From NCBI GenBank assembly GCA_030632385.1, contig DAOVUW010000001.1, positions 1 through 34,029 on the forward strand: a stretch of 34,029 nt of DNA. The letters run 5' to 3'. Made by a program: the position numbers and the translations under genes. The DNA is from Candidatus Nanohalarchaeota archaeon (GTDB taxonomy: Archaea; EX4484-52). The stretch's first letter is position 1; the number at the start of each line of letters is the position of its first letter. Of the stretch, positions 4,580 through 32,769 are shown one piece after another. Below the pieces are notes generated by a model, which had not been told where the DNA came from, made no database searches, and saw nothing but the letters and a program-made list of their open reading frames with translations.

Positions 4580-5023
4580 ATGGTAAGCGGATATGCAGTA
4601 GAAACAGACCCAAAAACAACCAGTCGTGTTTTAGGAAGAAATTTATCTATTTCAAAAAAATATTCTGTTGAAGTAGGGAGAACAATAAAAGGAATGAAAT
4701 TAAAAGATGCAAGAAAAAAATTACAAAACGCAATAGAATTAAAAGAACCTATACAATTCGTAAAATATAAAAGATCTACGGGTCACAGGAAAGGAGGTGT
4801 AATTGGAAAATATCCTAAAAATGTATGTCTTGCGGTTGACAATCTTCTCGATACACTTGAAAAAAATGCAATCGACAAAGGTTTGGATGACAAGAAATTA
4901 TACATCAAATATGTTTTTGTTGCAAAAGCATTTAGATTTCCAAGAAGAAGAAAAGTAAGCTTAAGAGGACAACGAAGAAAAAATACCAATGTCGGTATTG
5001 TCTGTGAGGAGGTATATCAATAA
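4580..5023 (+). CDS. rpl22: 50S ribosomal protein uL22
   Basis: Follows uS19 in the conserved order. Contains ISKKYSVEVGRTIKGMKLKDARKKLQ and GHRKG. I chose ATG 4580 just after the uS19 stop rather than the track start 4535, which overlaps uS19. Confidence 0.85.
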   Translation: MVSGYAVETDPKTTSRVLGRNLSISKKYSVEVGRTIKGMKLKDARKKLQNAIELKEPIQFVKYKRSTGHRKGGVIGKYPKNVCLAVDNLLDTLEKNAIDKGLDDKKLYIKYVFVAKAFRFPRRRKVSLRGQRRKNTNVGIVCEEVYQ

Positions 5024-5034
5024 TAATAAACAAT

Positions 5035-5919
5035 ATGAATGAATTAAATTTTATAAAAGAAGGAATACAAAAAGAAGAAATAAATCGCTTTATTACAAAA
5101 GAAATAGGACAAAGTCAGATAAGCCAATGTATAATTAAAAAAACGCCATTATATACACATGTACTTATTTATACTCAAAGACCTGCCAGAATAGTAGGAT
5201 ACAAAGGCACAAAATTAATGCACCTGAAAGAAACAATATCTTCTAAATTCAAGATAAAAAGTCTTAAAATGGATGTTTATAGTATAGACAATCCTTATCT
5301 AGATGCAAGTTTGATGGCAAATTTCATCGCAAGATCCTTGGAACAAGGCAAAAAACATAAAAGAGTAGTTTCTTTTATTATCGAAAAAATTATGTCTTCA
5401 GGAGCAATAGGCGTCGAGATAAATGTTACCGGCAAGATAAGCGGTTCGAGAAGCAGAGGAGACAAATTTTACAGAGGTTATCTTAAAAAATGCGGAGATC
5501 CTATTTATACATGCATAGACAAGAAAAAAGTAAGCGCTGTTTTAAAACAAGGATGCATCGGCATAAAGGTTACAATCATGAAAATCATGCCTGATGTAAT
5601 GCAATTGGAAAGCAACATCAATGCATTGGAAGTTCGTCTGAAAAGAGAATTTGAAAAAGCAGAAAAAGAGAAAAATAAAATAGAAACAAATGAAAAAGCA
5701 GAAACCCAAATGGTAGAGGGAAAAACAGATGACAAAAAGATTGTAGAAAACAAAGCAGAAGAAAAGTCAGTTGAAAAAACGAAAAAAACCGTGGAAGAAA
5801 AGGAAGAATCGAAAAAACTGGATGAAATTGAAGATAAAAAACCAGTAAAAAAAGAAACAAAAAAAGAAGAAATCCAAAAAGTAGAAGAAAAAGAAAAAGC
5901 TACTAAAACAAAAGAATAA
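5035..5919 (+). CDS. rps3: 30S ribosomal protein uS3 with a ~95-aa Lys/Glu-rich C-terminal extension
   Basis: KH-domain region RPARIVGYKGTKL, then GAIGVEINVTGKISGSRSR and GCIGIKV. The low-complexity K/E tail starts at about aa 200. Confidence 0.9.
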   Translation: MNELNFIKEGIQKEEINRFITKEIGQSQISQCIIKKTPLYTHVLIYTQRPARIVGYKGTKLMHLKETISSKFKIKSLKMDVYSIDNPYLDASLMANFIARSLEQGKKHKRVVSFIIEKIMSSGAIGVEINVTGKISGSRSRGDKFYRGYLKKCGDPIYTCIDKKKVSAVLKQGCIGIKVTIMKIMPDVMQLESNINALEVRLKREFEKAEKEKNKIETNEKAETQMVEGKTDDKKIVENKAEEKSVEKTKKTVEEKEESKKLDEIEDKKPVKKETKKEEIQKVEEKEKATKTKE

Positions 5920-7684: not shown

Positions 7685-7770
7685 AAAAATTGAAATTATT
7701 CTTCCCTTATTTATTTAAAAGTTCTGTTGAATTATTTATTAATTACATTAATTACAAAAGAGGGAGTTGT

Positions 7771-10770
7771 ATGTTTGGATATATAGGAAAAATATTAATA
7801 GTTGATTTAACTACAGGAAAAACAGATGAAAAAACACTAGATCCAGAATTATTGTCTAAATATATTGGTGGAAGAGGATTGACTACAAAAATTCTTTATG
7901 ATGAATTAAAGCCGGGAATTGATGCGCTTTCAGAGGAAAATATTATGGTCTTTATGACCGGTCCATTAACAGGACTTGCATGCTCTTCAGGAAGATTTTG
8001 CATTGCATCTAAATCTCCGCTTACCGGGACTATATTTGATTCACAGGTCGGCGGTACATTTGGCGTTGAACTCAAAAAAGGAGGATATGACGGAATAATT
8101 ATACTCGGAAAATCAAAAAAGCCGGTTTATCTTATGATTAACGATGGAAAAGCAGAATTAAAAGATGCTAAAAATCTATGGGGTAAAAACACAGGCGAAT
8201 GCACAGATTTAATATTAAATAAAGAAGGGAAAAATGTGAAAGTTTCATGCATTGGTCCTGCCGGAGAACATCTTGTAAGATATGCATGCATCATTACAGA
8301 GAAAGAAAGAGCTGCCGGACGAGGTGGTCTGGGAGCTGTAATGGGTTCAAAGAACTTAAAAGCTGTTGCTGTTAGGGGAACAGGAAAAATCATTCCTGCA
8401 AATGAATACGCATTTAGAAACGAAGATAGAAAATTTATGAAACTCTTAAGAGGTCATCCTGTTACAGGCGATGGATTTGGGCGTTTTGGAACATTAATAT
8501 TAATGAACCCAGTTAATAAGCAGGGTGTTTTGCCAGTAAATAACTTTCAGGAAGGTTATTCAGAATCAATAGAAAAACTGACCGGAGAAACAATGCAAAA
8601 ATATCTTGTAAAAAAAAGATCATGCGCTTTATGTCCCATTGCCTGCGGCAGAATTATTAAAGTAGGAAACACAACTACAAGCGGACCTGAATTCGAGAGT
8701 ACATGGGCATTGGGCGTCTTGACAGGATATTCTTCTGCTGAAAGTGTAGCACACTTAAATGAACTTTGCAATCAGTATGGATTGGATACTATTTCTACAG
8801 GAAACACAATGGGTTTTATCAAAGAATGTTTATCTAAATGTCTCATTGATGAAAAAATATCCTTTGATAATCACGAGGCACTTGCTAATTTAATAACTAA
8901 AATTGCATTTAGAGAAGGCATTGGTGATTTAATCGCAGAAGGAACAAAAAGAATTTCTTCAAAAATCGGGGGAAAAGAATTTGCAATCAATGTTAAAGGA
9001 TTGGAATTGCCTGCATATGATCCAAGGGGTACTAAAGGACAGGGACTTGCATATATTACAAGCAATAGAGGTGGTTGTCACACAAGAGCTTACATGATAC
9101 CACAAGAAGTACTTTCAATGCCAAGTTACTTGGATAATTTAGAAACGGACGGAAAGGCTAAAAAAGTAATAGATATTGAAAATATTTTTACTGTACTGGA
9201 TTCATTGATGAGATGCAAATTTACCTCACTGGCTGTCTTTAAAACATTCGATTATGAAGTTGAAGTCTACAGCAGACTACTGACAACAGCTACAGGATTT
9301 TATTTCTCACCGGAAGATTTCAAACAAGCAGGAGAAAGAATATGGAATCTAGAGAGATGCTTTAACAATAGAGAAGGATTTACAAAAGCAGATGATTCCT
9401 TGCCTAAAAGATTCTCCAAACCCATGATTGGAGGACCAGCAGACGGAGAAACAATTAACACAGAAAAAATGCTTGAAGATTATTATGATTTAAGAGGCTG
9501 GGATAGTGAAGGAATGCCGAGCGAAAGAAAATTAAAGGAATTGAGTTTGGATAAAATTAAAGTTCGGGAAATATGGCCTAAAAAAATAATCTCCTTAAAT
9601 TATGAATCTATTGATGAGGCTATTGCTACTGCAAAAAAAAAGGCAGGAATCGAAAACTGGATTGAAGCATCTTCGCCCTTGATCAAAAGTCAGGGCAATA
9701 ATGCAATATCTCAACTTAGATCAAATTTTCCAAACAACACGATCATTGCAGATTACAAAACAATGGATACAGGATATCTTGAAGTTACTATTGCCGCACA
9801 GGCAGGAGCCGATATCATAACAATATCAAGTCATGCGAGCAATAATACTATTGTAGATGCTGTTGGCGCAGCCGGAAAATACAGTGTGAAAATAATGATA
9901 GATTTATTTAGTTCAAATATAGACCGCGCAAAAGAACTTGAGTCTCTTGGTGTTAATTACATAAGAGTATTTGATGAAGAAAAAATAGAAGCAATATCCA
10001 ATGCAGTGACTATCCCTGTTGTTTCTTTAAAGACATCAAAATATGCTAAACTAATTACAGAGTCATATTATGATGAAAAAAAGGCACCTATAAAACGAAA
10101 GAACACACCGGAAAATGATGGAATATGGCCTAAACTCCAAGTAGCTTTAGATTTAGATAATCTTCCTGAAGCATTGAAACTTGCGCACGGAGCAAAAAAA
10201 GCAGAAGCAGACTGGCTGGAAGCAGGAACTCCATTGATAAAATACGCAGGTATGGAAGCTGTAAGAAAATTAAGAATACAACACCCCAAAAGCACTATTG
10301 TTGCTGATCTAAAGACATTATGCTATGGCTCAAAAGAAGTGGCAATTGCAGCAAGAGCAGGCGCAGATATAATTGGAATCTGCGGCGCATCTGAAGACAA
10401 AATTATTTTAGATGCTATTCAAACAGCAAAAGAATATAATGTACGAATAATGGCAGATTTAATATCCATTAAAGACCCTGTAAAACGGGCTAAAGAACTT
10501 GAAGATATGGGAGCAGACTATATTGAATTTCATATCTCTGTTGATGACCAAATGAGAAGCAGTGATGCAAAAATTCCTTTTCCTTTGGTAGAGCAAGTTT
10601 CTAAAGTTCTGACCATACCTATGGGTGTTGCAGGAGGCATGAGAGCAGATACAGCTCCATTGGCAATAAAATCCGGCGCAAAAGTAGCTGTTGTTGGCGG
10701 AGCAATAACAAGAGCCGCTAATCCTGAAAAAGCAAGTCTGTTACTCTTGAAGGCAATGGGAAGAAAGTGA
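7771..10770 (+). CDS. Fusion protein: tungsten-type aldehyde:ferredoxin oxidoreductase (AOR family) + truncated HPS-like barrel + full 3-hexulose-6-phosphate synthase barrel
   Basis: AOR part: GGRGL, CALCPIAC plus distal MRCKF (4Fe-4S ligand pattern), NRGGCH, and C-terminal YYDLRGWD. HPS part: LQVALD, LEAGTP, VADLKT, EFH, GVAGG, VVGGAI. ATG 7771 is preceded by agggag; the track start 7690 is a TTG. Confidence 0.85.
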   Translation: MFGYIGKILIVDLTTGKTDEKTLDPELLSKYIGGRGLTTKILYDELKPGIDALSEENIMVFMTGPLTGLACSSGRFCIASKSPLTGTIFDSQVGGTFGVELKKGGYDGIIILGKSKKPVYLMINDGKAELKDAKNLWGKNTGECTDLILNKEGKNVKVSCIGPAGEHLVRYACIITEKERAAGRGGLGAVMGSKNLKAVAVRGTGKIIPANEYAFRNEDRKFMKLLRGHPVTGDGFGRFGTLILMNPVNKQGVLPVNNFQEGYSESIEKLTGETMQKYLVKKRSCALCPIACGRIIKVGNTTTSGPEFESTWALGVLTGYSSAESVAHLNELCNQYGLDTISTGNTMGFIKECLSKCLIDEKISFDNHEALANLITKIAFREGIGDLIAEGTKRISSKIGGKEFAINVKGLELPAYDPRGTKGQGLAYITSNRGGCHTRAYMIPQEVLSMPSYLDNLETDGKAKKVIDIENIFTVLDSLMRCKFTSLAVFKTFDYEVEVYSRLLTTATGFYFSPEDFKQAGERIWNLERCFNNREGFTKADDSLPKRFSKPMIGGPADGETINTEKMLEDYYDLRGWDSEGMPSERKLKELSLDKIKVREIWPKKIISLNYESIDEAIATAKKKAGIENWIEASSPLIKSQGNNAISQLRSNFPNNTIIADYKTMDTGYLEVTIAAQAGADIITISSHASNNTIVDAVGAAGKYSVKIMIDLFSSNIDRAKELESLGVNYIRVFDEEKIEAISNAVTIPVVSLKTSKYAKLITESYYDEKKAPIKRKNTPENDGIWPKLQVALDLDNLPEALKLAHGAKKAEADWLEAGTPLIKYAGMEAVRKLRIQHPKSTIVADLKTLCYGSKEVAIAARAGADIIGICGASEDKIILDAIQTAKEYNVRIMADLISIKDPVKRAKELEDMGADYIEFHISVDDQMRSSDAKIPFPLVEQVSKVLTIPMGVAGGMRADTAPLAIKSGAKVAVVGGAITRAANPEKASLLLLKAMGRK
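10572..10770 (+). repeat. Direct repeat copy A (last ~66 codons plus stop of the AOR-HPS gene)
   Basis: Aligned by hand to 12439-12632. About 9 mismatches in the first ~155 nt, then a 5-nt indel. Both copies end at the stop codon. Confidence 0.85.
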
Positions 10771-11078: not shown

Positions 11079-12380
11079 ATGGAGAATAAAATATCATTTA
11101 AAGATTTGAATTTAATACCACCGCTCGAAAGAGCACTAACTAAACAAAAGTATACCGTTCCTACCCCCATACAATCAAAATCCATCCCTGGTCTATTACA
11201 AGGTGAAGATTTGATTGGTATCGCACAAACAGGTACTGGTAAAACAGCAGCATTCATATTGCCAATATTGCAAAGGATGAGAGAGAAATATCCCAGAAAA
11301 ATTAAGACTTTGGTAATTACCCCTACCAGAGAACTTGCTGCACAAATTGGAGAAAGTTTTTCTGCATACGGCGAGTTTCTTAAATTTAAGCACACTGTAA
11401 TTTTTGGTGGAGTTGGTCAGGGGAAACAAGTCCGGGTCTTATCCAGCGGCGTAGATATTCTTGTTGCAACCCCAGGCAGATTACTGGATTTAATGAATCA
11501 AGGAATAATTAATCTAAAGGATGTAGAATTTTTTGTATTGGATGAAGCAGACAGAATGCTGGACATGGGATTCATTAATGATGTAAAGAAAATAATCTCA
11601 AAATTACCTCTTAAAAGACAATCCCTGTTTTTCTCAGCAACAATGTCTCCTGAGATTAATAAACTTGCAAAAACTCTACTTAAAAATCCTATTCATGTTG
11701 AAGTTACACCTCAGGCAACTACAGTTGAGCGCATAAAACAATGTATCTTTTTTGTAGACCCATCTGCAAAAGAAAAATTATTATTTGAACTTCTAAAACA
11801 GGAACATCTTACAAGTGTTTTGGTTTTCACCCGAACAAAACATAAGGCAAATAAATTAGCATCATTTCTTAGTAAAAATAATATATCTGCTGATGCAATT
11901 CATGGAAATAAATCACAAAACGCAAGAACTAAGGCAATTAGCGATTTTAAAACAGGCAAAACCAAAGTATTGGTAGCAACAGACATTGCTGCGCGAGGAA
12001 TAGACATTGAGAATATTTCGCATGTTATAAATTTCGAACTTCCGAACGAACCAGAAAGCTATGTTCACAGAATTGGGAGGACTGCCCGAGCCGGGGCTGA
12101 TGGAACAGCCTATTCATTTTGTGCAGCAGAAGAAAGGAATTATCTTAGAGATATTGAAAGATTAATAAAACAAAAAATTGAAGTTAATAATCATACCTTT
12201 CATTCAGAAATTGCTCAAAACGCAGTAGGTGCAGCAGCCAAACCTGCACCAAAAAATAAAAGACAATTTTCTAGAAATGCCAAATATGGTGATGGACCTA
12301 AAAACACACAAAAAAATAAAAAACCATTTTCTAAGAATGTTAAATCAGGGAATAGACCTAAACGCAGTTTTAGAAGATGA
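11079..12380 (+). CDS. DEAD-box ATP-dependent RNA helicase (RhlE-like) with a basic repeat tail
   Basis: Q motif [35 protein letters not shown] and [10 protein letters not shown]. Lys/Arg/Asn-rich C-terminus. Confidence 0.92.
12252..12362 (+). repeat. Two 51-nt tandem units (60-nt period) encoding KNK.(Q/P)FS(R/K)N.K.G..PK in the helicase tail
   Basis: 12252-12302 and 12312-12362 align with few substitutions and are separated by aacacacaa. Confidence 0.7.
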
Positions 12381-12438
12381 TTAATAAATAATATTATTCT
12401 TGCTGTGCCATCCTAACTTCGACAAATTTGAAAGCAAT

Positions 12439-12632
12439 AATTCCTTTTCCTTTGGTAGAGCAAGTTTTTAAAGTTCTGACTATACCCACGGGTGTTGCAG
12501 GAGGCATGAGAGCAGATACCGCTCCATTGGCAATAAAATCCGGCACAAAAGTAGCTGTTGTCGGCGGAGCAATAACAAGAGCAGCCAATCCCGACAAGCC
12601 TCTTGCTCTTGAAGGCTATGGGGAGAAAGTAG
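12439..12632 (+). pseudogene. Promoterless 3'-terminal remnant of an HPS gene (direct repeat copy B)
   Basis: Encodes IPFPLVEQVFKVLTIPTGVAGGMRADTAPLAIKSGTKVAVVGGAITRAANP, nearly identical to the C-terminus of the 7771-10770 product. A 5-nt deletion then shifts the frame, and the original LLKAMGRK-stop is still visible out of frame (TAG 12630-12632). There is no upstream HPS sequence. Confidence 0.85.
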
Positions 12633-12749
12633 TTGCTTTATTTGTAATAAATCTCTTCTGCCTAAAAAATATCTTAACTATTTTAGACAAAGCATTTCAG
12701 ATAAATTTAAAAACGCAAAATTTAGTTATTTATTAGAATAATAACTAAT

Positions 12750-13784
12750 ATGAAAACTAATCTGACAAAACATGATGTTTCTATCATAATGATATTTGTC
12801 CTGTTATTGATTATAGGAAATGCTTTTATTTATTTGAAAGCCAGCGACAATAGTGAAATTTTAACAATGGATGAGAAAAATGATGAAATGAATGCTTATG
12901 TAGATAAATTGTATACAGATGCTGCAAATAATATAAAACGCATAAATAATGCCGATATAAAATCATGGACATTATATACAAACAAAGAACGTGGATTCTC
13001 TTTTAGATATCCTTCATATTACGATAAGTTTATAGTACCACAATCCGCTTATAGTGGTGAGGACAGAATTGACTTGACAATTACTCTTTCAGCATATAAT
13101 GATGAATTTACAGGAAGAATTATGATTATAGTTCATGATAAGCATTTGGATACTGTAAAATGGGAAATGAAAGATAAAGTAGAATCTTTTGAGGACATTG
13201 CTGTTGCAAAAGTAACTGGGAAAAAAGGAATAGTAAAATCAGAAAACATGGCGTACTCTTTTGTACTCTTTGAAAAGAACAGTAAAACTTATTCTATTAT
13301 TGCTGAAGATAATGAAGTCCTTGAAAAGATATGCAGTAGTTTTACTTTTCAAAACGATGATAGCACCACTGCACAGACAAATGAAATAGAAACAACTTCT
13401 GATTCATTGAAAACATATAAAAACGAAGAGTATAAATTTATGTTAGAATATCCTTCTTATCTTGAAAAATTCATAACTCCCATTACAAATGACGCTCCGG
13501 ATGGAGTTGAATTAATAGTTCTCTTCTCTTCTTTAGGTGATGAATCTTTTGAACCAATAGCTGTAATAATCTATAATCAAAGTGTTGAAGAGATAACAGA
13601 TGCTATAGGTGTTGACATAGAAGATACTACCATTAATGGATTGCCTGCTAAAAAAGGAGTGCGTCAGCAAAACGGAGAACTACAGGCAACTGTAATTTTT
13701 GAGAAAAACAGCAAAGTGTATGTTCTCATTGGAAAAGAAAATAAAGAGTTTAAAACAATATTAAATAGTTTTATCATGCTGTAA
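12750..13784 (+). CDS. Membrane-anchored or secreted protein with two tandem ~125-aa repeats (unknown family)
   Basis: N-terminal TM helix (SIIMIFVLLLIIGNAFIY). Repeat 1 (aa 72-200) and repeat 2 (aa 220-344) share Y.N.E..F...YPSY..KFI.P… and …FEKNSK.Y..I.….F….L.SF. Confidence 0.6.
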   Translation: MKTNLTKHDVSIIMIFVLLLIIGNAFIYLKASDNSEILTMDEKNDEMNAYVDKLYTDAANNIKRINNADIKSWTLYTNKERGFSFRYPSYYDKFIVPQSAYSGEDRIDLTITLSAYNDEFTGRIMIIVHDKHLDTVKWEMKDKVESFEDIAVAKVTGKKGIVKSENMAYSFVLFEKNSKTYSIIAEDNEVLEKICSSFTFQNDDSTTAQTNEIETTSDSLKTYKNEEYKFMLEYPSYLEKFITPITNDAPDGVELIVLFSSLGDESFEPIAVIIYNQSVEEITDAIGVDIEDTTINGLPAKKGVRQQNGELQATVIFEKNSKVYVLIGKENKEFKTILNSFIML

Positions 13785-13793
13785 TAATTGATT

Positions 13794-14933
13794 ATGAATC
13801 GAACATTATTGAAGTGGTTATGCCTTATTTTCGTGATTAATTTAATTGGAATTTATTGTGTTTTCTACTACAATCCGAGTTATTCTATTTTAGATATAGG
13901 GAGTGAAAGTTGCGTTCCTATTACCTGGAACTCTGAAGGAGAAAAGATTGCGTTTTTAAAGAACTTTGACGGATTTATTAAAGCTAGAGTTTACGATTTT
14001 CAAAACAAAAAGTTTAAGGATTATCCTGTAAATTCTTTAAGCGAAGTAAGTTTTAGAGACAATATTGTTTTTTCGCCGGACGCTAAAAAAATAGTTTACA
14101 TAACTAGAATAGGAAACGATAGAATTGTATCTTTATTAAATCTTGATAGCAGTACTGTATCTACTCTGGAAGATATATTGATTTATTCAAATTTATCAAC
14201 AACTTCTACAGGACGACCCATAAAAACTGTTTTTTGGTTAGATAATGACAGATTAATATATGAAAACAAAATTTCATTTAAACGAAATGGCATAATCATA
14301 GTTGATTTAAAGACAGGAGAAGAATTGCTATTTATAAAAAATGGGCTTCAACCATCTTTGTCTAATGACAAGACAAAAATAGCATATATCGTAATGGCAG
14401 AAGGAGGGATAAAATTTAATGTAAAAGTATTGAATTTGTTGTCCAATAAAACAATAACATTGGCAGAAAATGTTGAAACTTATTTGCATAGTATCAGATG
14501 GTCTCCAACAGATGCACACATAGCCATAGGGTATTCACAAGTTTATAAAATACCAGATAAAGCGAATATTGTTGGAGACAAAATTGCTATTATTGATATG
14601 GATAAGAATTTTTCTCTAGTTAGCGGAAGTAAATTATTGGCCTCGCCGGAATGGATAGATGAAAATAATATTTTAATGGCAGAATATAAAACATCCGGAA
14701 TTGTGCTACAGTCAAAAACAATAAAGGGATTGTATCTTTACAATATTAAAACAAGGGATTATAAAAAAATTTCATCAAAAATAAGATCTCTTAATTACTA
14801 TATTTCGCCTGATAGAAAAACACTGGTTTCGAGTTTGGGAACAAGAGGTTTTTTTGTTTTAAATTTAGAAAGATTGCTTTATCCAACCAAAATTGATAAA
14901 CTAAGAACAAAACTTGGAATTGTTAATCCATGA
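13794..14933 (+). CDS. Membrane-anchored TolB-like beta-propeller protein
   Basis: N-terminal TM helix. PD40-like repeats recur: FSPDAKKIVYI, SNDKTKIAYIV, WSPTDAHIAIG, ISPDRKTLVSS. ATG 13794 is preferred over TTG 13788. Confidence 0.55.
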   Translation: MNRTLLKWLCLIFVINLIGIYCVFYYNPSYSILDIGSESCVPITWNSEGEKIAFLKNFDGFIKARVYDFQNKKFKDYPVNSLSEVSFRDNIVFSPDAKKIVYITRIGNDRIVSLLNLDSSTVSTLEDILIYSNLSTTSTGRPIKTVFWLDNDRLIYENKISFKRNGIIIVDLKTGEELLFIKNGLQPSLSNDKTKIAYIVMAEGGIKFNVKVLNLLSNKTITLAENVETYLHSIRWSPTDAHIAIGYSQVYKIPDKANIVGDKIAIIDMDKNFSLVSGSKLLASPEWIDENNILMAEYKTSGIVLQSKTIKGLYLYNIKTRDYKKISSKIRSLNYYISPDRKTLVSSLGTRGFFVLNLERLLYPTKIDKLRTKLGIVNP

Positions 14934-15148: not shown

Positions 15149-17428
15149 TTATTCCAAATATTTTATATGCAATAAATCTTTTTCTTCAAGACATAGTTTT
15201 TCATACATGCATGCAAATATTCCTTCCAAGAAACCAAGAAGAAGAATCTCTCCTTTAAATTCTGATGGGTATCTGTAATTTTTTCCGCTGCTGAACTGCT
15301 TTTCAAACCATGATATTTTTTCAGTATAACTTTCTTCTTTGTCCTGGACATAGATGCCTGTTGCTTTTTTGCTGTTTATCAATTCCTGCACCAACGTCTT
15401 TTTGCCCGAGAGGAAAAAATACGGAACAATGCCTATGTCATTCAAAACCTGCGTTGCATAATGAGTCTCTTTGATTCTGCCGGACAAAGACAAAATGACG
15501 GCGACATCTTTTTCATCTATCCTCTTTACGACTGATGAGCCTATGATCATTATCTTTGTGCCGGAAATCTGATATAGCCTTGAAGCAAATAATTTGGCTA
15601 TCGTGTGCATCCTGCCGTATGCCTGCAATACAATTTTTGAAGATTTTCTTGTCTCTAAGATGGCATCAATAAGCGTCTCTATTTTTTCATACTGGTCATG
15701 GATTATTTCTTTTTGCCTGAGAAGTTCATCAGAGATATCGAGTATGTATTTTTTCATATAAGATGGTTTTTTACCCACCATATAAGCTTCCACCAAACTG
15801 GTCAAAACTACAAGAACTGAAAATTCCGAAATAGTGCCCAATGGGGTCCTTTTGGAAATCAAATCCTTTTCTTTGCTTTTGAAATCATCCTTTGTCCTCC
15901 CTTTTATGACAAGCAATGTGTCTTTTTCATCCCATGCCTTGCCCTGCGCATTGGTGGTGATTCCGATTATTCTTGCGCCTTTTTCTCTCAAGGTGTTTAC
16001 ATATTCCATGACAGAATAAGTGTTTCCTGAAGAGGAAATCGCAAATAATATGTCTTTTTTTCTTTTTCCAAAATCAACAGCAATGTCCTCATCGCCTGCA
16101 GATATTATCCGCGTATCTGCTATCTTTCCAAGCCATGCGCCTGCATATCTTGCCACAAGCCCCGAGCGACCGGCACCGGTTAAAACAATTCTTGAATCTT
16201 TGTCTATTGAATCTAATATCTGCGCAATAATATTTTCATCTATATTCTCCGCCACTTCTTTGAGCTGAGAGGATAGAATTTCCAGCACATCTTCTATCAC
16301 AGAACCCATATCATCTGTAATTTTTTCTTTTATTTTTTTTATTGCTTCAGCAGGATTTTCTGATTTGGCAATTTCACTGCCTACAATGACTATTCCTACT
16401 CCTGCTTTAGAGATATTATATGCACTCTGCTTATTTACTCCTCCTGCAACTGCTACAGGTATCGACAATTCCTGTGATATTCTTTTTATGCTTTTCGGAG
16501 GAACTATTTTACTGTGCAATAAATCATTTTCTGATTGATAATAGCGAACAAAATCAACTCCTATTTTCTCCAGTTCTTTTGCCCGTTTTATTAATCTCTC
16601 TTCTCCAATGCACTCGCGCAGACCAATCAAATCCGCCATAACTTTTTTTTTGTATTTTTTTGCAACAGATACTGCTTTTTTTATCTCCTCGATATCTGTA
16701 ATTGCGAGTATGCATGCTATATCTGCTCCTGCTGCAAAAGCACTTGAAAATTCTTTTTCTGCATCAGTTATTGTTCTTGTATTGGCAACAATGGTATTGT
16801 GCGGATAAAGTTCTTTAAATTGACTTACAACATCCATTCCTTCTTCTTTTAATTCATACCCTCTAACCACCAGAGCATCTTGAGGAATCGTCCCAATAAT
16901 CACATTCTTTTCATCTTCTCCCTTGGCTTCTTCTCCTGTATATCTTAACATCAAATCTTTATTGATTTGACATACCATACACTTTGAATCCATATATATT
17001 TTGATATTTGCTTCTATGGCAGCGTTAATGCATTCCCTTATTGTTGTCAAAGAGCCCATCTGCGTAATAATTATAATATCTGCTCCGGCATCAATTGCTA
17101 ATTTCATTTCTTCTTTTCCTGCATTTATTGGTTTTAAACTAACAGCTATCAATTTTCCTGGATTGCTTTTTTTTAATTTCTTTACTTTTTTCATTCCTAC
17201 TGCCTTAATCAAAAGCGGTCCAACCTCAATAAAATCACTATCTTCTACAACTAATTCTTTAGCTATTTTCAACGCCTTTTTCTTATCTGTAAAATTTATT
17301 GCTGTCTGCAGAACTGTTTTTCTCTCATTGCGTATAAACTCCATGTTGTGCGCTGGTTTAGACACAACATGAGAAAATCCTGCACTATCTAAAGAAGAAT
17401 CAAATCTGCAGGATTTTTGCTTGTTCAT
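15149..17428 (-). CDS. Four-module RuMP protein: HPS-like (truncated) + HPS-like + 6-phospho-3-hexuloisomerase (SIS) + second degenerate SIS domain
   Basis: HPS-like: LQTAINF, FIEVGPLLIK, AGADIIII; second module AGADIACI, VAVAGGV, VIVGSEI. PHI: VLTGAGRSGL, FAISSSGNT, PLGTISEF. Second SIS: VLQAYGRM, LSLSGRIKET. A possible alternative start is M29 (ATG at 17344). Confidence 0.85.
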   Translation of the reverse strand: MNKQKSCRFDSSLDSAGFSHVVSKPAHNMEFIRNERKTVLQTAINFTDKKKALKIAKELVVEDSDFIEVGPLLIKAVGMKKVKKLKKSNPGKLIAVSLKPINAGKEEMKLAIDAGADIIIITQMGSLTTIRECINAAIEANIKIYMDSKCMVCQINKDLMLRYTGEEAKGEDEKNVIIGTIPQDALVVRGYELKEEGMDVVSQFKELYPHNTIVANTRTITDAEKEFSSAFAAGADIACILAITDIEEIKKAVSVAKKYKKKVMADLIGLRECIGEERLIKRAKELEKIGVDFVRYYQSENDLLHSKIVPPKSIKRISQELSIPVAVAGGVNKQSAYNISKAGVGIVIVGSEIAKSENPAEAIKKIKEKITDDMGSVIEDVLEILSSQLKEVAENIDENIIAQILDSIDKDSRIVLTGAGRSGLVARYAGAWLGKIADTRIISAGDEDIAVDFGKRKKDILFAISSSGNTYSVMEYVNTLREKGARIIGITTNAQGKAWDEKDTLLVIKGRTKDDFKSKEKDLISKRTPLGTISEFSVLVVLTSLVEAYMVGKKPSYMKKYILDISDELLRQKEIIHDQYEKIETLIDAILETRKSSKIVLQAYGRMHTIAKLFASRLYQISGTKIMIIGSSVVKRIDEKDVAVILSLSGRIKETHYATQVLNDIGIVPYFFLSGKKTLVQELINSKKATGIYVQDKEESYTEKISWFEKQFSSGKNYRYPSEFKGEILLLGFLEGIFACMYEKLCLEEKDLLHIKYLE

Positions 17429-18966: not shown

Positions 18967-19915
18967 ATGCGAGTCTATATATCAATCCCCTCGTGGAAAA
19001 ATAAAGATTGGAAAAATAAAAAATTATTAAATTTGTTTAATCAAAAAGTTGACATTGTCATTTGCGATAAAAGACCAACTCAATCAGAATTTGAAAATAT
19101 AATTCGTGAATATGATGGAGCAATTATTGGACAATTCCATTCAATTAATAAAGAAGTATTAAAAAATACAAAGCTAAAATTTGTTGGAACAGTGACTTAA
19201 AGGAACAGACCTTATTGATATCGATGAATGCAAAAAGAAAAATGTTTCTGTTTTCTATACTCCTGAAACAAATATAACTTCTGTTGCTGAACATGTTATG
19301 ACTTTAATTTTATCTTTATCAAAAAATCTAATTAAACTTGACAAAAGTGTTAGAGAAGAACAATTTGATAAATATAAATATTTTACTATCGATATAAAAG
19401 ATAAAACATTAGGAGTTATTGGTGCAGGAGCTATCTCAACAGAAATTATCAAAAGAGCAAATAGTTTTGATATGAAGATAATATGTTATACGCAACATCC
19501 AGAAAAACACAAAAACTTGAAAGTTGAATTTGTTCCTTTGACAGATTTATTGAAAAACTCTGATTTTGTTTCAATTAACATTCCCTTAACCAAAGATACA
19601 GAAAATTTTATTGATATAAAAGAATTATCTCTTATGAAAGAAAGCTCTTTTTTAATAAATGCATCAAGAGGGAAAGTGGTTAATGAAAAAGCATTGATAA
19701 ATGTTTTAAAAAATAATGAACTAGCAGGAGCAGGAATCGATGTTTTTGAAGAATAGCCAACACACAATAAGCAATTATTCTTATTGGATAATGTAATCCT
19801 AACTCCTCATGCTGCAGGATGTTCAAAAGATGCACTCGATAGGATGGAAAAATATGTAATTGAGGATATAATCGCCTTCTTAGAAAATAAACAACCCAAA
19901 TATAGATTAGCATAA
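18967..19915 (+). pseudogene. D-isomer-specific 2-hydroxyacid dehydrogenase (SerA/GyaR-like), disrupted by one frameshift and one in-frame TAG
   Basis: Three collinear ORF pieces. The frame changes at ACT-TAA-A (19195-19201), and removing one base restores VGTVTKGTDLIDID. NAD motif GVIGAGAIS, then NASRG, then DVFEE-TAG(19754-19756)-P…LTPHAAG. Confidence 0.8.
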
Positions 19916-31239: not shown

Positions 31240-32769
31240 ATGAATAAATATATTATTTCTTCAATTCTTGATTCTAATGCCCTGAATCAAAAAGATAAAA
31301 GTTCTTTTATCGCCATATCTGATGCTCTAAAGCATGGTTCTGAATTTATCGTACTTGAAAAAGAAGAATTATCAGGGAATCTTGAACCATTTTTAGAAAA
31401 AGCAATAGATCATCTTTTGACTGTTGAAAAAGCAAAAATGGGTTGCCGAACCACAGACAGTTTGGATCTTTCTTCTTCTAATCTTAGCGAATGGAAAAAC
31501 AGTCATAAAAAACTCATTTCTATGCTATTTTACAATAAAAAAATATTTAATGCTCAATTTATTTCATTTTATCCTTCAACAAAAGTGATTCCTCCATTAT
31601 GCTATGATTTTGAATATCTGAACCAAAAAAAAGTATCTCCGCAAGTTTGCCCAAAAGGAAATAATCTGGGTCTTTTCATCCAAGACGCAAATCTTATCGA
31701 TTGGTTTTGCGCAAAACATATCCGACTTATTTTTGAAAATCTCAACATCCATAATTCCAGCGCAACCCAGATAATACTTTTTTTTGAAAAAGAATCACGA
31801 AAAGCAATAGAACTAAACAAAACTCCTTCTTTAAAGCAATTTGAGGAAAATATCGGGGAAAACGAAACTCTCAAAAAAGCCATGAGCCAATACAATATTA
31901 TTTCTATTTTCCAACATTGGGTTGCAAACGGAGCAAGAGCAGAAGAAAAAGATGCGTATGCTATTATTGCGCAATACTTATATTCCACAAAAAATAAATT
32001 ATGGAATGATTTTCGCCTGAATAATATCAATCCTGAAATGATTATTGAAAAAATAAACCGGGGAGAAAAAATCTATGAAAATTCTATTTTTGAAGATAAA
32101 AGTTTTGTGTATATTCTAAAGAAAATCATCTCTGCCGTTGCCTGCAACTATATAGATGGGCATTTTAAAAATACAGATGCATCAATATCCTTTGAAACTT
32201 TTGATAGAAATCTCGGGAAAATAACTGCCTATGATTATATTGTTAAAAGCAATATTCCTGTTTTATTTGCAACTGCAAAACCGCAGGATAAATGGAGTAG
32301 TGAAAATCTCCGCCTAAATAATATAGAAGATTATACTCTGCTCTCTAAAAATTTGGATGAAGGACAATACAGTGGGATTTGCCTAAATCTTTATAATTTG
32401 ATATTAAATCTCGTAGATATTGAAAAAGACATAAATCAGATGTATGGATATTCCGGAAAATACATAAAAGAAGTTGTAATTGATTTAATAAACAATCCTG
32501 GCATAAGTCAAACAAGTTACAGAATGTATTCTGTTTATTCTATATTGTATCGCCTAAAGCAAAAAGGAATGGACTTTGCTTATCTGTCTTATTCTATAAG
32601 CAATACTTTAGAAACCGCACATAATCTTAGAATCATAAGAGATTATTTGTTGAGAAATACAACACCTAAAGAACTGCCTGCATCCTTTTATGGTATCGAT
32701 GAAAACCTGAATGCGCAACATCAAAGAACAATAAGAGAAAATACTTATCGACTGCTGGATAAGATGTAG
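31240..32769 (+). CDS. Large soluble hypothetical protein (509 aa), no recognisable motif
   Basis: Long uninterrupted ORF in an AT-rich, stop-rich background. It is divergent from the platform gene with a 49-bp spacer. Confidence 0.6.
   Translation: MNKYIISSILDSNALNQKDKSSFIAISDALKHGSEFIVLEKEELSGNLEPFLEKAIDHLLTVEKAKMGCRTTDSLDLSSSNLSEWKNSHKKLISMLFYNKKIFNAQFISFYPSTKVIPPLCYDFEYLNQKKVSPQVCPKGNNLGLFIQDANLIDWFCAKHIRLIFENLNIHNSSATQIILFFEKESRKAIELNKTPSLKQFEENIGENETLKKAMSQYNIISIFQHWVANGARAEEKDAYAIIAQYLYSTKNKLWNDFRLNNINPEMIIEKINRGEKIYENSIFEDKSFVYILKKIISAVACNYIDGHFKNTDASISFETFDRNLGKITAYDYIVKSNIPVLFATAKPQDKWSSENLRLNNIEDYTLLSKNLDEGQYSGICLNLYNLILNLVDIEKDINQMYGYSGKYIKEVVIDLINNPGISQTSYRMYSVYSILYRLKQKGMDFAYLSYSISNTLETAHNLRIIRDYLLRNTTPKELPASFYGIDENLNAQHQRTIRENTYRLLDKM

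Follow-up and report, generated by a model that had tools for sequence, protein, structure and literature searches.

In archaea that run HPS and PHI in reverse, one molecule of toxic formaldehyde is released for every ribulose-5-phosphate formed, and methanogens are known to trap this formaldehyde by means of a Fae-Hps fusion. How most of the non-methanogenic archaea, the Asgard relatives of eukaryotes among them, dispose of the formaldehyde is a part of their central metabolism that is still to be settled. A gene encoded in a stretch of 34,029 nucleotides from Candidatus Nanohalarchaeota archaeon, a member of DPANN (assembly GCA_030632385.1, contig DAOVUW010000001.1, forward strand; the whole stretch is referred to as the window), raises the question whether an aldehyde:ferredoxin oxidoreductase (AOR) could dispose of the formaldehyde while joined to HPS in a single chain. 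A conserved HPS-AOR fusion would provide a concrete and testable answer to the question of formaldehyde fate.

The open reading frame extends from 7690 to 10770 on the forward strand, to which all the coordinates below refer unless stated otherwise, and comprises 1026 codons counted from a TTG, with no internal stop in the translation. The start is likely to be the ATG at 7771, which gives a protein of 999 residues; a Shine-Dalgarno-like GAGGGAG is located at 7760-7766, and the gene predicted on an independent contig begins at the same codon. The whole gene (7771..10770, 999 codons and the stop) encodes an AOR, followed by a pseudo-HPS barrel and an HPS barrel. An earlier note, made from the letters of the DNA, had described a single stop-free frame for AOR and HPS. 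The frame is indeed continuous over 7771-10770, all the motifs quoted in that note (GGRGL, CALCPIAC, MRCKF, NRGGCH, YYDLRGWD, LQVALD, LEAGTP, ADLK, EFH, GVAGG and VVGGAI) occur in the translation, and the domain borders hold in Pfam/HMM searches, which assign AFOR_N, AFOR_C and OMPdecase/HPS.

The same reading frame has been identified in a 26.8 kb contig (L001) from ENA that is 99.89% identical to the window over 20.7 kb, with 4 substitutions and no indel in the frame. Nine further clusters of this long form, 52-65% identical, and about 88 clusters of a one-barrel fusion have been found in NCBI, JGI, ENA and Logan assemblies; clustering at 90% identity thus leaves about 100 clusters with the AOR-HPS architecture. 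When the identity threshold is lowered to 50%, four representatives of the fusion remain (P0005, P0097, P0121 and P0122), and no further architectures have been found among the 1.84 billion representatives searched. The hosts include MAGs of Promethearchaeota, Hodarchaeales, Heimdallarchaeota, Nezhaarchaeales, Methanomethylicota, Bathyarchaeia, Thermoplasmata and DPANN. In a neighbour-joining (NJ) tree all the fusions fall in one clade with the stand-alone AORs outside, and the three-module long form is confined to one sub-clade, in which the named genomes are DPANN (Aenigmatarchaeota-type) MAGs. The linker between AOR and HPS is short and fixed across the phyla of the fusion clade. Judged from these comparisons the fusion is ancient and maintained, and its occurrence as a conserved clade argues for selection.

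A full-text search of the published literature revealed no description of an AOR-HPS fusion. The novelty suggested in the earlier note therefore stands as far as the literature found is concerned, but the architecture is widespread and not unique to the window. In the databases these proteins are labelled generically as 'aldehyde ferredoxin oxidoreductase' or 'OMP decarboxylase', and the fusion conceals the RuMP enzymes from routine annotation. HxlA and HxlB have been reported as absent outside Altiarchaeota in a survey of DPANN (PMC8407392).

The N-terminal part belongs to the AOR family, as both members of the Pfam pair are assigned well above their thresholds: AFOR_N (PF02730; residues 6-204, 7786..8382) with an E-value of 1.9e-81 and 273 bits against a cutoff of 29.8, and AFOR_C (PF01314; domains 2 and 3, residues 221-593, 8431..9549) with an E-value of 1e-130 and 436.8 bits against a cutoff of 27. 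In the alignment to the AOR of P. furiosus (1AOR), three of the four [4Fe-4S] ligands lie in C285-x2-C288-x3-C292 (8623..8646) and the fourth is C482 (9214-9216); they correspond to Cys288, Cys291, Cys295 and Cys494 of PfAOR. The catalytic Glu309 and His437, situated in the AFOR_C region, align with Glu313 and His448. None of these six residues varies among 48 fusion proteins, and the [4Fe-4S] ligands on which the earlier reading depended are intact. At the positions of the two pterin-binding motifs of the type DxxGL(D/C)x the protein reads N334-QYGL-D339-T, in which the first Asp is replaced by Asn as in the solved AOR 9mqx, and D477-SLMR-C482-K.

The earlier note had further taken the AOR part as a plausible formaldehyde oxidiser and had pointed to the FOR clade, which oxidises formaldehyde with ferredoxin. 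Membership of that clade is rejected, as the AOR part aligns to 1AOR with 514.8 bits and 43% identity, against 370.6 bits and 34% identity for the FOR of P. furiosus (1B25). By these scores the AOR part is nearer to AOR proper than to FOR; its nearest relatives are broad-specificity AORs and any preference for formaldehyde would be putative. The metal is presumed to be tungsten. A MoaD/SAMP1-like gene adjoins the fusion at two other loci (L083 and L085) and is no more than a hint toward a W/Mo bis-pterin cofactor.

The C-terminal part is an intact HPS barrel (residues 787-999, 10129..10767) according to profile, fold and residue comparisons. The HPS motif set noticed earlier in the last barrel is borne out by the equivalog-domain profile TIGR03128 (RuMP_HxlA, NCBIfam), which gives 276.4 bits over residues 789-991 (cutoff 200). 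The Pfam family OMPdecase matches two stretches of the protein, the better one at residues 787-988 (E-value 1.9e-43). Foldseek superposes the barrel on HPS 3AJX with a TM score of 0.94, an rmsd of 1.3 Å and 37% identity, in agreement with the (β/α)8 fold. The residues D794, E817, D846-x-K848, H921, G955-G956 and G976-G977 are all present. The third Asp of the D-x-K-x-x-D motif is replaced by Cys851 (10321..10323), and the HPS catalytic set, otherwise conserved, is to be regarded as complete only under the pseudo-dimer model described below. This Asp is absent from the C-terminal HPS of all ten long forms, where C, R, S, A or K is found instead, and is kept in all 38 one-barrel forms as well as in 3AJX and KGPDC.

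The middle barrel (residues ~601-767, 9571..10071) duplicates the C-terminal HPS barrel within the protein, with 40% identity (blastp, 1e-36). Two OMPDC-type barrels had been counted in the earlier note; the number is right, but the first of them is catalytically degenerate. It keeps D661-x-K663-x-x-D666 and has lost the β1 Asp and the His, together with the two glycine loops that bind phosphate. Among the ten long forms its third Asp is kept in every case, the β1 Asp is lost in every case and the His is lost in nine. Conservation of this barrel is highest at residues 661-700 around D-x-K-x-x-D (0.85-0.93), and eight strands are seen in the AF2 model. A poorly conserved linker (residues 768-786, 10072..10128; mean conservation 0.44, pLDDT ~77 in AF2) separates the two barrels. 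The AF2 model of the full-length protein has a pTM of 0.86 and that of the isolated pair of barrels one of 0.90, and the packing of the domains is therefore confidently predicted.

In the OMPDC suprafamily the third Asp of D-x-K-x-x-D acts in trans, across the dimer interface; this role was reportedly described by Wise et al. in 2002-2005, the counterpart in OMPDC being Asp75'. Since the third Asp is lost from the C-terminal HPS yet kept in the dead middle barrel, the complementary loss of residues points to a pseudo-dimer formed within the chain and having a single active site. The middle barrel appears to complete this single HPS active site in trans, and by analogy Asp666 (9766..9768), an Asp in all ten long forms, may be the residue that reaches into the live barrel. 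The HPS module would have been duplicated within the gene in this DPANN lineage, after which the copies would have lost complementary residues, leaving a middle barrel that donates the cross-interface Asp and a C-terminal barrel that supplies every other catalytic residue of a single-chain pseudo-dimer. If this model holds, the long form is a clean natural case of a homodimeric barrel enzyme that became a single chain by duplication and complementary loss.

A second RuMP-related gene has been identified by profile search on the reverse strand at 15149..17428, 4.4 kb downstream of the fusion. Its product of 759 residues combines two barrels (one partial and degenerate, the other HPS-like but lacking the catalytic D, K and H) with a PHI-type SIS domain and a further SIS-like one. 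PHI activity would probably come from this gene. The assignment of PHI is provisional because the score with TIGR03127 (101.7 bits) is below the cutoff of 160. With the 759-residue protein as the query, the only matches were one identical partial protein, from an Aenigmarchaeota MAG, and two remote relatives, and no wider occurrence of its unusual architecture emerged. In the window, in a Hodarchaeota contig (L009), in a Promethearchaeota contig (L083) and in L087, a PHI gene is located no more than a few kb from the fusion; the one in L087 is a bona fide PHI with 184.6 bits against the same cutoff. No PHI was found within 6-10 kb of the fusion at five other loci (L002, L008, L010, L012 and L085), and neither PHI nor HPS was found near the stand-alone AORs at any of 68 loci. 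No ferredoxin gene was found in the window, the motif CxxCxxCxxxC being absent from all six frames. A decayed duplicate of the last ~200 nucleotides of the fusion gene (original 10567-10768) is present at 12434..12630, with 93% identity over 164 nucleotides, 86% over 36 nucleotides and a 5-nucleotide deletion; a DEAD-box helicase gene is bracketed by this duplicate and its original.

These observations lead us to propose, with a probability of roughly 0.6, that the gene encodes a bifunctional reverse-RuMP enzyme which converts hexulose-6-phosphate to ribulose-5-phosphate and the formaldehyde so formed to formate, with reduction of ferredoxin. Fructose-6-phosphate would be isomerised to D-arabino-3-hexulose-6-phosphate by a PHI that probably resides in the SIS domain of the 759-residue protein. 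The C-terminal HPS barrel would cleave this product to ribulose-5-phosphate and formaldehyde, and the N-terminal AOR domain, with its pterin and [4Fe-4S] cofactors, would oxidise the formaldehyde to formate and pass two electrons to ferredoxin. Free formaldehyde would be expected to remain low, the unfavourable cleavage to be pulled forward and a part of the reducing power to be recovered. To our knowledge, formaldehyde is the sole metabolite common to an aldehyde oxidoreductase and HPS; what we infer from the sequences is that formaldehyde links the two reactions, that it is channelled between the two sites and that flux runs in this direction.

Loki- and Heimdallarchaeia are thought to make pentoses through the reverse RuMP pathway (bioRxiv 10.1101/385732). 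For the family as a whole, the AOR-HPS fusion probably removes the formaldehyde that arises in pentose synthesis, and we favour the view that this clade supplies the formaldehyde sink hitherto missing. In archaea that have neither Fae nor H4MPT, it would make reverse-RuMP pentose synthesis safe and a source of reduced ferredoxin. Pentose synthesis would then feed the ferredoxin pool.

AORs are reversible and the sequence therefore does not fix the direction of the reaction. The same enzyme working in the opposite sense would be a route of ferredoxin-driven formate assimilation, in which the AOR reduces formate to formaldehyde, HPS condenses it at once with ribulose-5-phosphate, pulling the unfavourable reduction of formate forward, and PHI yields fructose-6-phosphate. 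We regard this as a tentative and rather doubtful possibility. The AOR of Clostridium autoethanogenum (9g7j, 497 bits), which is among the closest solved relatives, physiologically runs in the acid-reducing direction, and the equilibrium of HPS favours condensation. An uphill first step would need precisely such a fusion, and many of the hosts (Bathyarchaeia, Methanomethylicota and Asgard) live with formate and reduced ferredoxin available. The formate/formaldehyde couple, at about -530 mV, is however lower than most ferredoxins. A cyclic RuMP pathway must also regenerate ribulose-5-phosphate by transketolase and transaldolase, both of which are reported missing in many of these archaea (bioRxiv 10.1101/385732; PMC8407392). 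Autotrophy on C1 compounds is unlikely for a DPANN symbiont of reduced genome, and neither a formate transporter nor a formate dehydrogenase adjoins the fusion among the loci examined. The corresponding proposal for the whole clade, a natural single-polypeptide module from formate through formaldehyde to hexulose-6-phosphate in Asgard, TACK and DPANN archaea, is unlikely; if true, it would be a C1-fixing entry to sugar phosphates in archaea, of a kind that we know only from synthetic designs.

The two activities could also be uncoupled, with the AOR oxidising other aldehydes, for example from the breakdown of amino acids or sugars, and formaldehyde serving as no link; the attached barrels would either serve co-expression, oligomerisation or regulation or act on another sugar phosphate. 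The similarity of the AOR part to broad-specificity AORs rather than to FOR, the several lineages in which the fusion has no linkage to PHI, and the functional promiscuity of OMPDC-suprafamily barrels such as KGPDC and HPS (PMC5980557) are in line with this. We consider it quite unlikely in view of the HPS score above the equivalog-domain cutoff, the HPS catalytic residues kept in all 48 fusions (the third Asp of long-form C-terminal barrels excepted), and the stability of the clade and its linker over phyla. Linkage to PHI in four lineages, as against none of the 68 control loci, likewise speaks against uncoupled activities, and the rigid assembly confidently predicted at a pTM of 0.86 argues against a loosely tethered passenger domain. 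The caveat raised in the earlier note was an artefact, with AOR and HPS genes that are in reality separate and have been joined by a chimeric assembly, an overlooked stop or a frameshift. Nothing was found in its favour; it is extremely improbable and, as far as sequence comparison reaches, is rejected by the unbroken frame, the second contig and the same junction, which recurs across many phyla and four data sources in ten long-form and ~88 one-barrel clusters.

With the reverse-RuMP formaldehyde sink as the preferred reading, the window protein may be compared to the known fusions of HPS. The profiles of Fae-Hps (NF009833; 178.5 bits, cutoff 274), Hps-Phi (NF041755; 264.9 bits, cutoff 500) and Hps-RraA-like proteins (NF005442; 345.9 bits, cutoff 593) match only its HPS part, and in the absence of a full-length match above these curated cutoffs it is not assigned to any of the three. 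The Fae-Hps of methanogens represents the same logical solution, in that HPS is joined to an enzyme serving as the sink or the source of its formaldehyde. The partners are nevertheless unrelated, as Fae condenses formaldehyde with tetrahydromethanopterin and the partner in the window is a pterin/[4Fe-4S] oxidoreductase. The Hps-Phi proteins of Thermococcales and others share the pathway with the window protein, and one of them (PDB 9lj9, chain 9lj9_B) is the closest solved HPS relative of its barrel (186 bits, 44% identity). They differ in that the window protein carries an N-terminal AOR as the partner and lacks a SIS/PHI domain; PHI is provisionally assigned to the separate gene at 15149-17428.

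The AOR part shares the fold (Foldseek TM 0.95), 43% identity and the [4Fe-4S] and Glu/His residues with 1AOR and its relatives (9mqx, 9g7j and 8c0z), which are of ~605 residues and have no C-terminal extension, whereas the fusions form an NJ clade of their own. FOR (1B25) has the family and fold in common with the AOR part (TM 0.92) but is more remote from it than 1AOR. With the homodimeric HPS and KGPDC (3AJX and 1KV8), the long form shares the barrel and the catalytic set of D, E, D-x-K, H and phosphate loops; it differs from them in having a covalently attached dead copy as its putative dimer partner, to which the third Asp would have moved.

An open frame spanning 7690..10770 on the forward strand, uninterrupted in the ORF listing of the window, encodes an aldehyde:ferredoxin oxidoreductase (AOR) joined to HPS, a 3-hexulose-6-phosphate synthase. 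Translation most probably begins at the ATG at 7771, since a purine-rich GAGGGAG lies at 7760-7766 and an independent contig carries a gene call with the identical start; this gives a protein of 999 aa. Pfam assigns AFOR_N to residues 6-204 (E 1.9e-81), AFOR_C to residues 221-593 (E 1e-130) and OMPdecase to two stretches, the better of which covers residues 787-988 (E 1.9e-43). The HPS equivalog-domain model of NCBIfam, TIGR03128, scores 276.4 bits over residues 789-991 (cutoff 200). The ORF listing, Pfam and NCBIfam thus confirm the AOR-HPS fusion that the earlier note had placed at 7771-10770; the domains it had proposed for checking (AFOR_N, AFOR_C and OMPdecase/HPS) are all detected on the one product, and every motif it quoted is found in the translation.

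As far as sequence comparison can tell, a chimeric assembly or other artefact is ruled out by a second copy of the gene and by about 100 clusters of the same architecture from several data sources. The second copy lies on a 26.8 kb ENA contig (L001) that is 99.89% identical to the window across 20.7 kb, and it differs by four substitutions, two of them amino-acid changing (R481I, S486T), with no indel. The AOR-HPS junction is in register in all the 48 aligned fusion sequences.

The search for further fusions that the earlier note had suggested, made by homology in NCBI, JGI, ENA and Logan assemblies, has identified about 100 clusters at 90% identity (P0001-P0101) from many archaeal lineages, with AFOR_N, AFOR_C and OMPdecase in a single polypeptide. 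A library of 1.84 billion representatives clustered at 50% identity gave 22,766 matches, in which only four representatives of the fusion are left. The majority are short forms of 803-859 aa comprising the AOR, a short linker and a single HPS barrel, and the named metagenome-assembled genomes (MAGs) encoding them belong to Promethearchaeota, Hodarchaeales, Heimdallarchaeota, Nezhaarchaeales, Thermoprotei, Thermoplasmata, Methanomethylicota/Methanosuratincola and Bathyarchaeia. The long forms, to which the window's protein belongs, make up ten clusters; they measure 988-1014 aa, carry an additional barrel of about 170 aa between AOR and HPS, and come from MAGs labelled Aenigmatarchaeota, 'Nanohalarchaeota' or 'archaeon'. 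The genes of the window place it in a DPANN archaeon of Aenigmatarchaeota type: the aIF5B shares 77% and 63% identity with proteins of Aenigmarchaeota MAGs, and the genes are archaeal in context (ribosomal proteins, SUI1, FtsZ, archaeal CCA-adding enzyme, Trm1, RIO kinase).

In a neighbour-joining tree of 121 AOR domains, rooted on 1AOR and without support values, all fusions form one clade separate from the stand-alone AORs (P0102-P0120), and the 'non-fusion' leaves within this clade are truncated proteins only. The long forms are a single sub-clade nested among the short ones. By the simplest history, the fusion arose once, and in a DPANN lineage its HPS module was then duplicated once within the gene.

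The AOR part scores highest with 9mqx (518.6 bits), P. furiosus AOR 1AOR (514.8) and C. autoethanogenum 9g7j (497.2), followed by Aromatoleum 8c0z (441.2), the formaldehyde:ferredoxin oxidoreductase FOR 1B25 (370.6) and WOR5 (241.8). Its AF2 model superposes on 1AOR with a TM-score of 0.95 (43% identity) and on FOR with 0.92 (34% identity). The domain does not belong to the FOR clade, at which the earlier note had hinted, the nearest relative by sequence being AOR proper (514.8 bits for 1AOR vs 370.6 for 1B25). Formaldehyde is a known in vitro substrate of P. furiosus AOR, and the Km of FOR for it is very high, so the clade to which the domain belongs does not settle its substrate. The cluster cysteines C285, C288, C292 and C482 align with C288, C291, C295 and C494 of the P. 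furiosus enzyme, and the catalytic Glu309 and His437 with its E313 and H448. Since these six residues are unchanged in 48/48 fusion proteins, the AOR domain looks catalytically competent.

The middle barrel (residues ~601-767), for which AF2 predicts eight strands, shares 40% identity with the HPS barrel at the C-terminus (blastp 1e-36). Two OMPDC-type barrels are thus present, as had been noticed earlier, but the middle one has lost the beta1 Asp (10/10), the phosphate loops and mostly the His (9/10). An alignment was made of the single barrel of 38 short forms, the two barrels of each of the 10 long forms, M. gastri HPS (3AJX) and KGPDC. Throughout this alignment D794 (the beta1 Asp), Glu817, D846-x-K848, His921 and both glycine phosphate loops are retained in the C-terminal barrel. 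All 38 short forms and both reference enzymes have the third Asp of the suprafamily motif D-x-K-x-x-D; in its place the C-terminal barrels of all ten long forms have C, R, S, A or K (Cys851 in the window). The middle barrel retains this motif, including the third Asp (Asp666 in the window), in 10/10, and its conservation is maximal at this segment (0.85-0.93 for residues 661-680; 0.4-0.6 in the last strands). In dimers of the OMPDC suprafamily this Asp crosses the interface into the active site of the partner (Asp75' of OMPDC; Wise, Gerlt, Rayment and co-workers). The residue pattern is as one would expect for an intramolecular pseudo-dimer, in which the C-terminal barrel and Asp666 of the middle barrel would build the single complete HPS active site and the reciprocal site would be degenerate on either side. 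A fixed packing of the domains is supported by the AF2 models of the full-length protein (pLDDT 92.7, pTM 0.86) and of the two barrels alone (pLDDT 90.4, pTM 0.90, from an alignment of 10 sequences only).

A 759-aa RuMP-related protein is encoded 4.4 kb downstream on the opposite strand (15149-17428). It comprises a partial degenerate (dead OMPDC-type) barrel, an HPS-like barrel (TIGR03128, 185.8 bits, under the cutoff of 200), a 6-phospho-3-hexuloisomerase (PHI)-type SIS domain (TIGR03127, 101.7 bits, under the cutoff of 160) and a second SIS-like domain. The HPS-like barrel is without the catalytic Asp, Lys and His (ANTRT for ADLKT, VRYY for EFH), and therefore the AOR-fused HPS is the only HPS barrel of the window with a full catalytic set. 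Only three relatives were found: a partial Aenigmarchaeota MAG protein, identical (100%), and two more remote proteins with 39% and 31% identity. The architecture is unusual and, as in the fusion gene, RuMP domains have been duplicated and have then degenerated.

At other fusion loci, a bona fide PHI (184.6 bits vs cutoff 160) lies 2.5 kb downstream in L087, and in Promethearchaeota (L083/L084) and Hodarchaeota (L009) the fusion has tandem double-PHI genes as direct neighbours. The 389-aa product with two tandem PHI-like SIS domains, encoded on the reverse strand (L083 8738-9907; L009 ~4629-5753), is another tandem-duplicated RuMP enzyme. PHI linkage was not found in L002, L008, L010, L012 and L085, and the same scan found PHI or HPS in the flanks of 0/68 stand-alone AOR loci. 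A small MoaD/SAMP1-like (ThiS-fold) gene also adjoins the fusion in Promethearchaeota and Nezhaarchaeales (L083 8451-8804, forward; L085 5644-5931, reverse), which is compatible with a link to pterin-cofactor maturation.

The final ~200 nt of the fusion gene (10567-10768) recur 1.87 kb downstream at 12434-12630 (93% and 86% identity, with a 5-nt deletion) in a 102-codon remnant ORF (12428-12736). The two copies bracket a DEAD-box helicase gene (11079-12380), which looks like the outcome of an insertion of this gene or a duplication of the segment; L001 has the identical arrangement. The basic C-terminal tail of the helicase contains a tandem 60-nt repeat (12228-12347, 70% identity). In a 2-hydroxyacid dehydrogenase gene (~18967-19756), 10 differences from L001, one of them an extra T at 19197, cluster at 19168-19268, and because that T disrupts the frame only a 152-aa ORF (19298-19756) is left of the 262-aa gene of L001, either by sequencing or assembly error or as a strain-specific pseudogene. 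Three sizeable ORFs (344, 381 and 509 aa; within 12750-14933 and 31240-32769, forward strand) match no Pfam family, the 381-aa one having weak TolB/beta-propeller-like NCBIfam matches only.

We favour, with a probability of roughly 0.6, the role proposed in the earlier note, reverse-RuMP pentose synthesis with the AOR domain oxidising the released formaldehyde, because formaldehyde is the sole compound handled by both HPS and an aldehyde oxidoreductase and archaea run HPS and PHI in reverse to obtain ribulose-5-P. For Loki- and Heimdallarchaeia such a route has been proposed (bioRxiv 10.1101/385732). PHI would convert F6P to hexulose-6-P, the HPS barrel would cleave this to Ru5P and formaldehyde, and the AOR domain would yield formate and two reduced ferredoxins. 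Formaldehyde oxidation, at its very low potential, would draw the unfavourable HPS cleavage forward and hold formaldehyde low. The main alternative, though an unlikely one, is the same enzyme working in the opposite direction, in ferredoxin-driven formate assimilation; it is conceivable because AORs are reversible, and acid reduction is known for the close solved relative 9g7j. That the two activities are non-coupled is less likely still in view of the HPS catalytic set, intact in 48/48 sequences (the third Asp of the long forms being in the middle barrel), the age of the fusion clade, the PHI linkage and the rigid predicted model.

According to a comparative study of DPANN (PMC8407392), HxlA and HxlB are absent outside Altiarchaeota, a statement that the fused HPS genes in DPANN contradict. 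The fusion proteins are named 'aldehyde ferredoxin oxidoreductase', '3-hexulose-6-phosphate synthase' or 'orotidine 5'-phosphate decarboxylase' in databases. Full-text literature searches gave no description of the AOR-HPS fusion, which is no proof that none exists. The protein falls under the curated cutoffs of all three catalogued HPS fusions (Hps-Phi, Fae-Hps and Hps-RraA-like), whose NCBIfam models align with its HPS part only. In methanogens, Fae-Hps follows the same logic of coupling HPS to an enzyme that deals with formaldehyde, with a different partner and different chemistry. The domains and the pathway are known; the AOR-HPS architecture is widespread but undescribed in the literature searched, and one sub-clade has a predicted single-chain pseudo-dimer as an elaboration of it.
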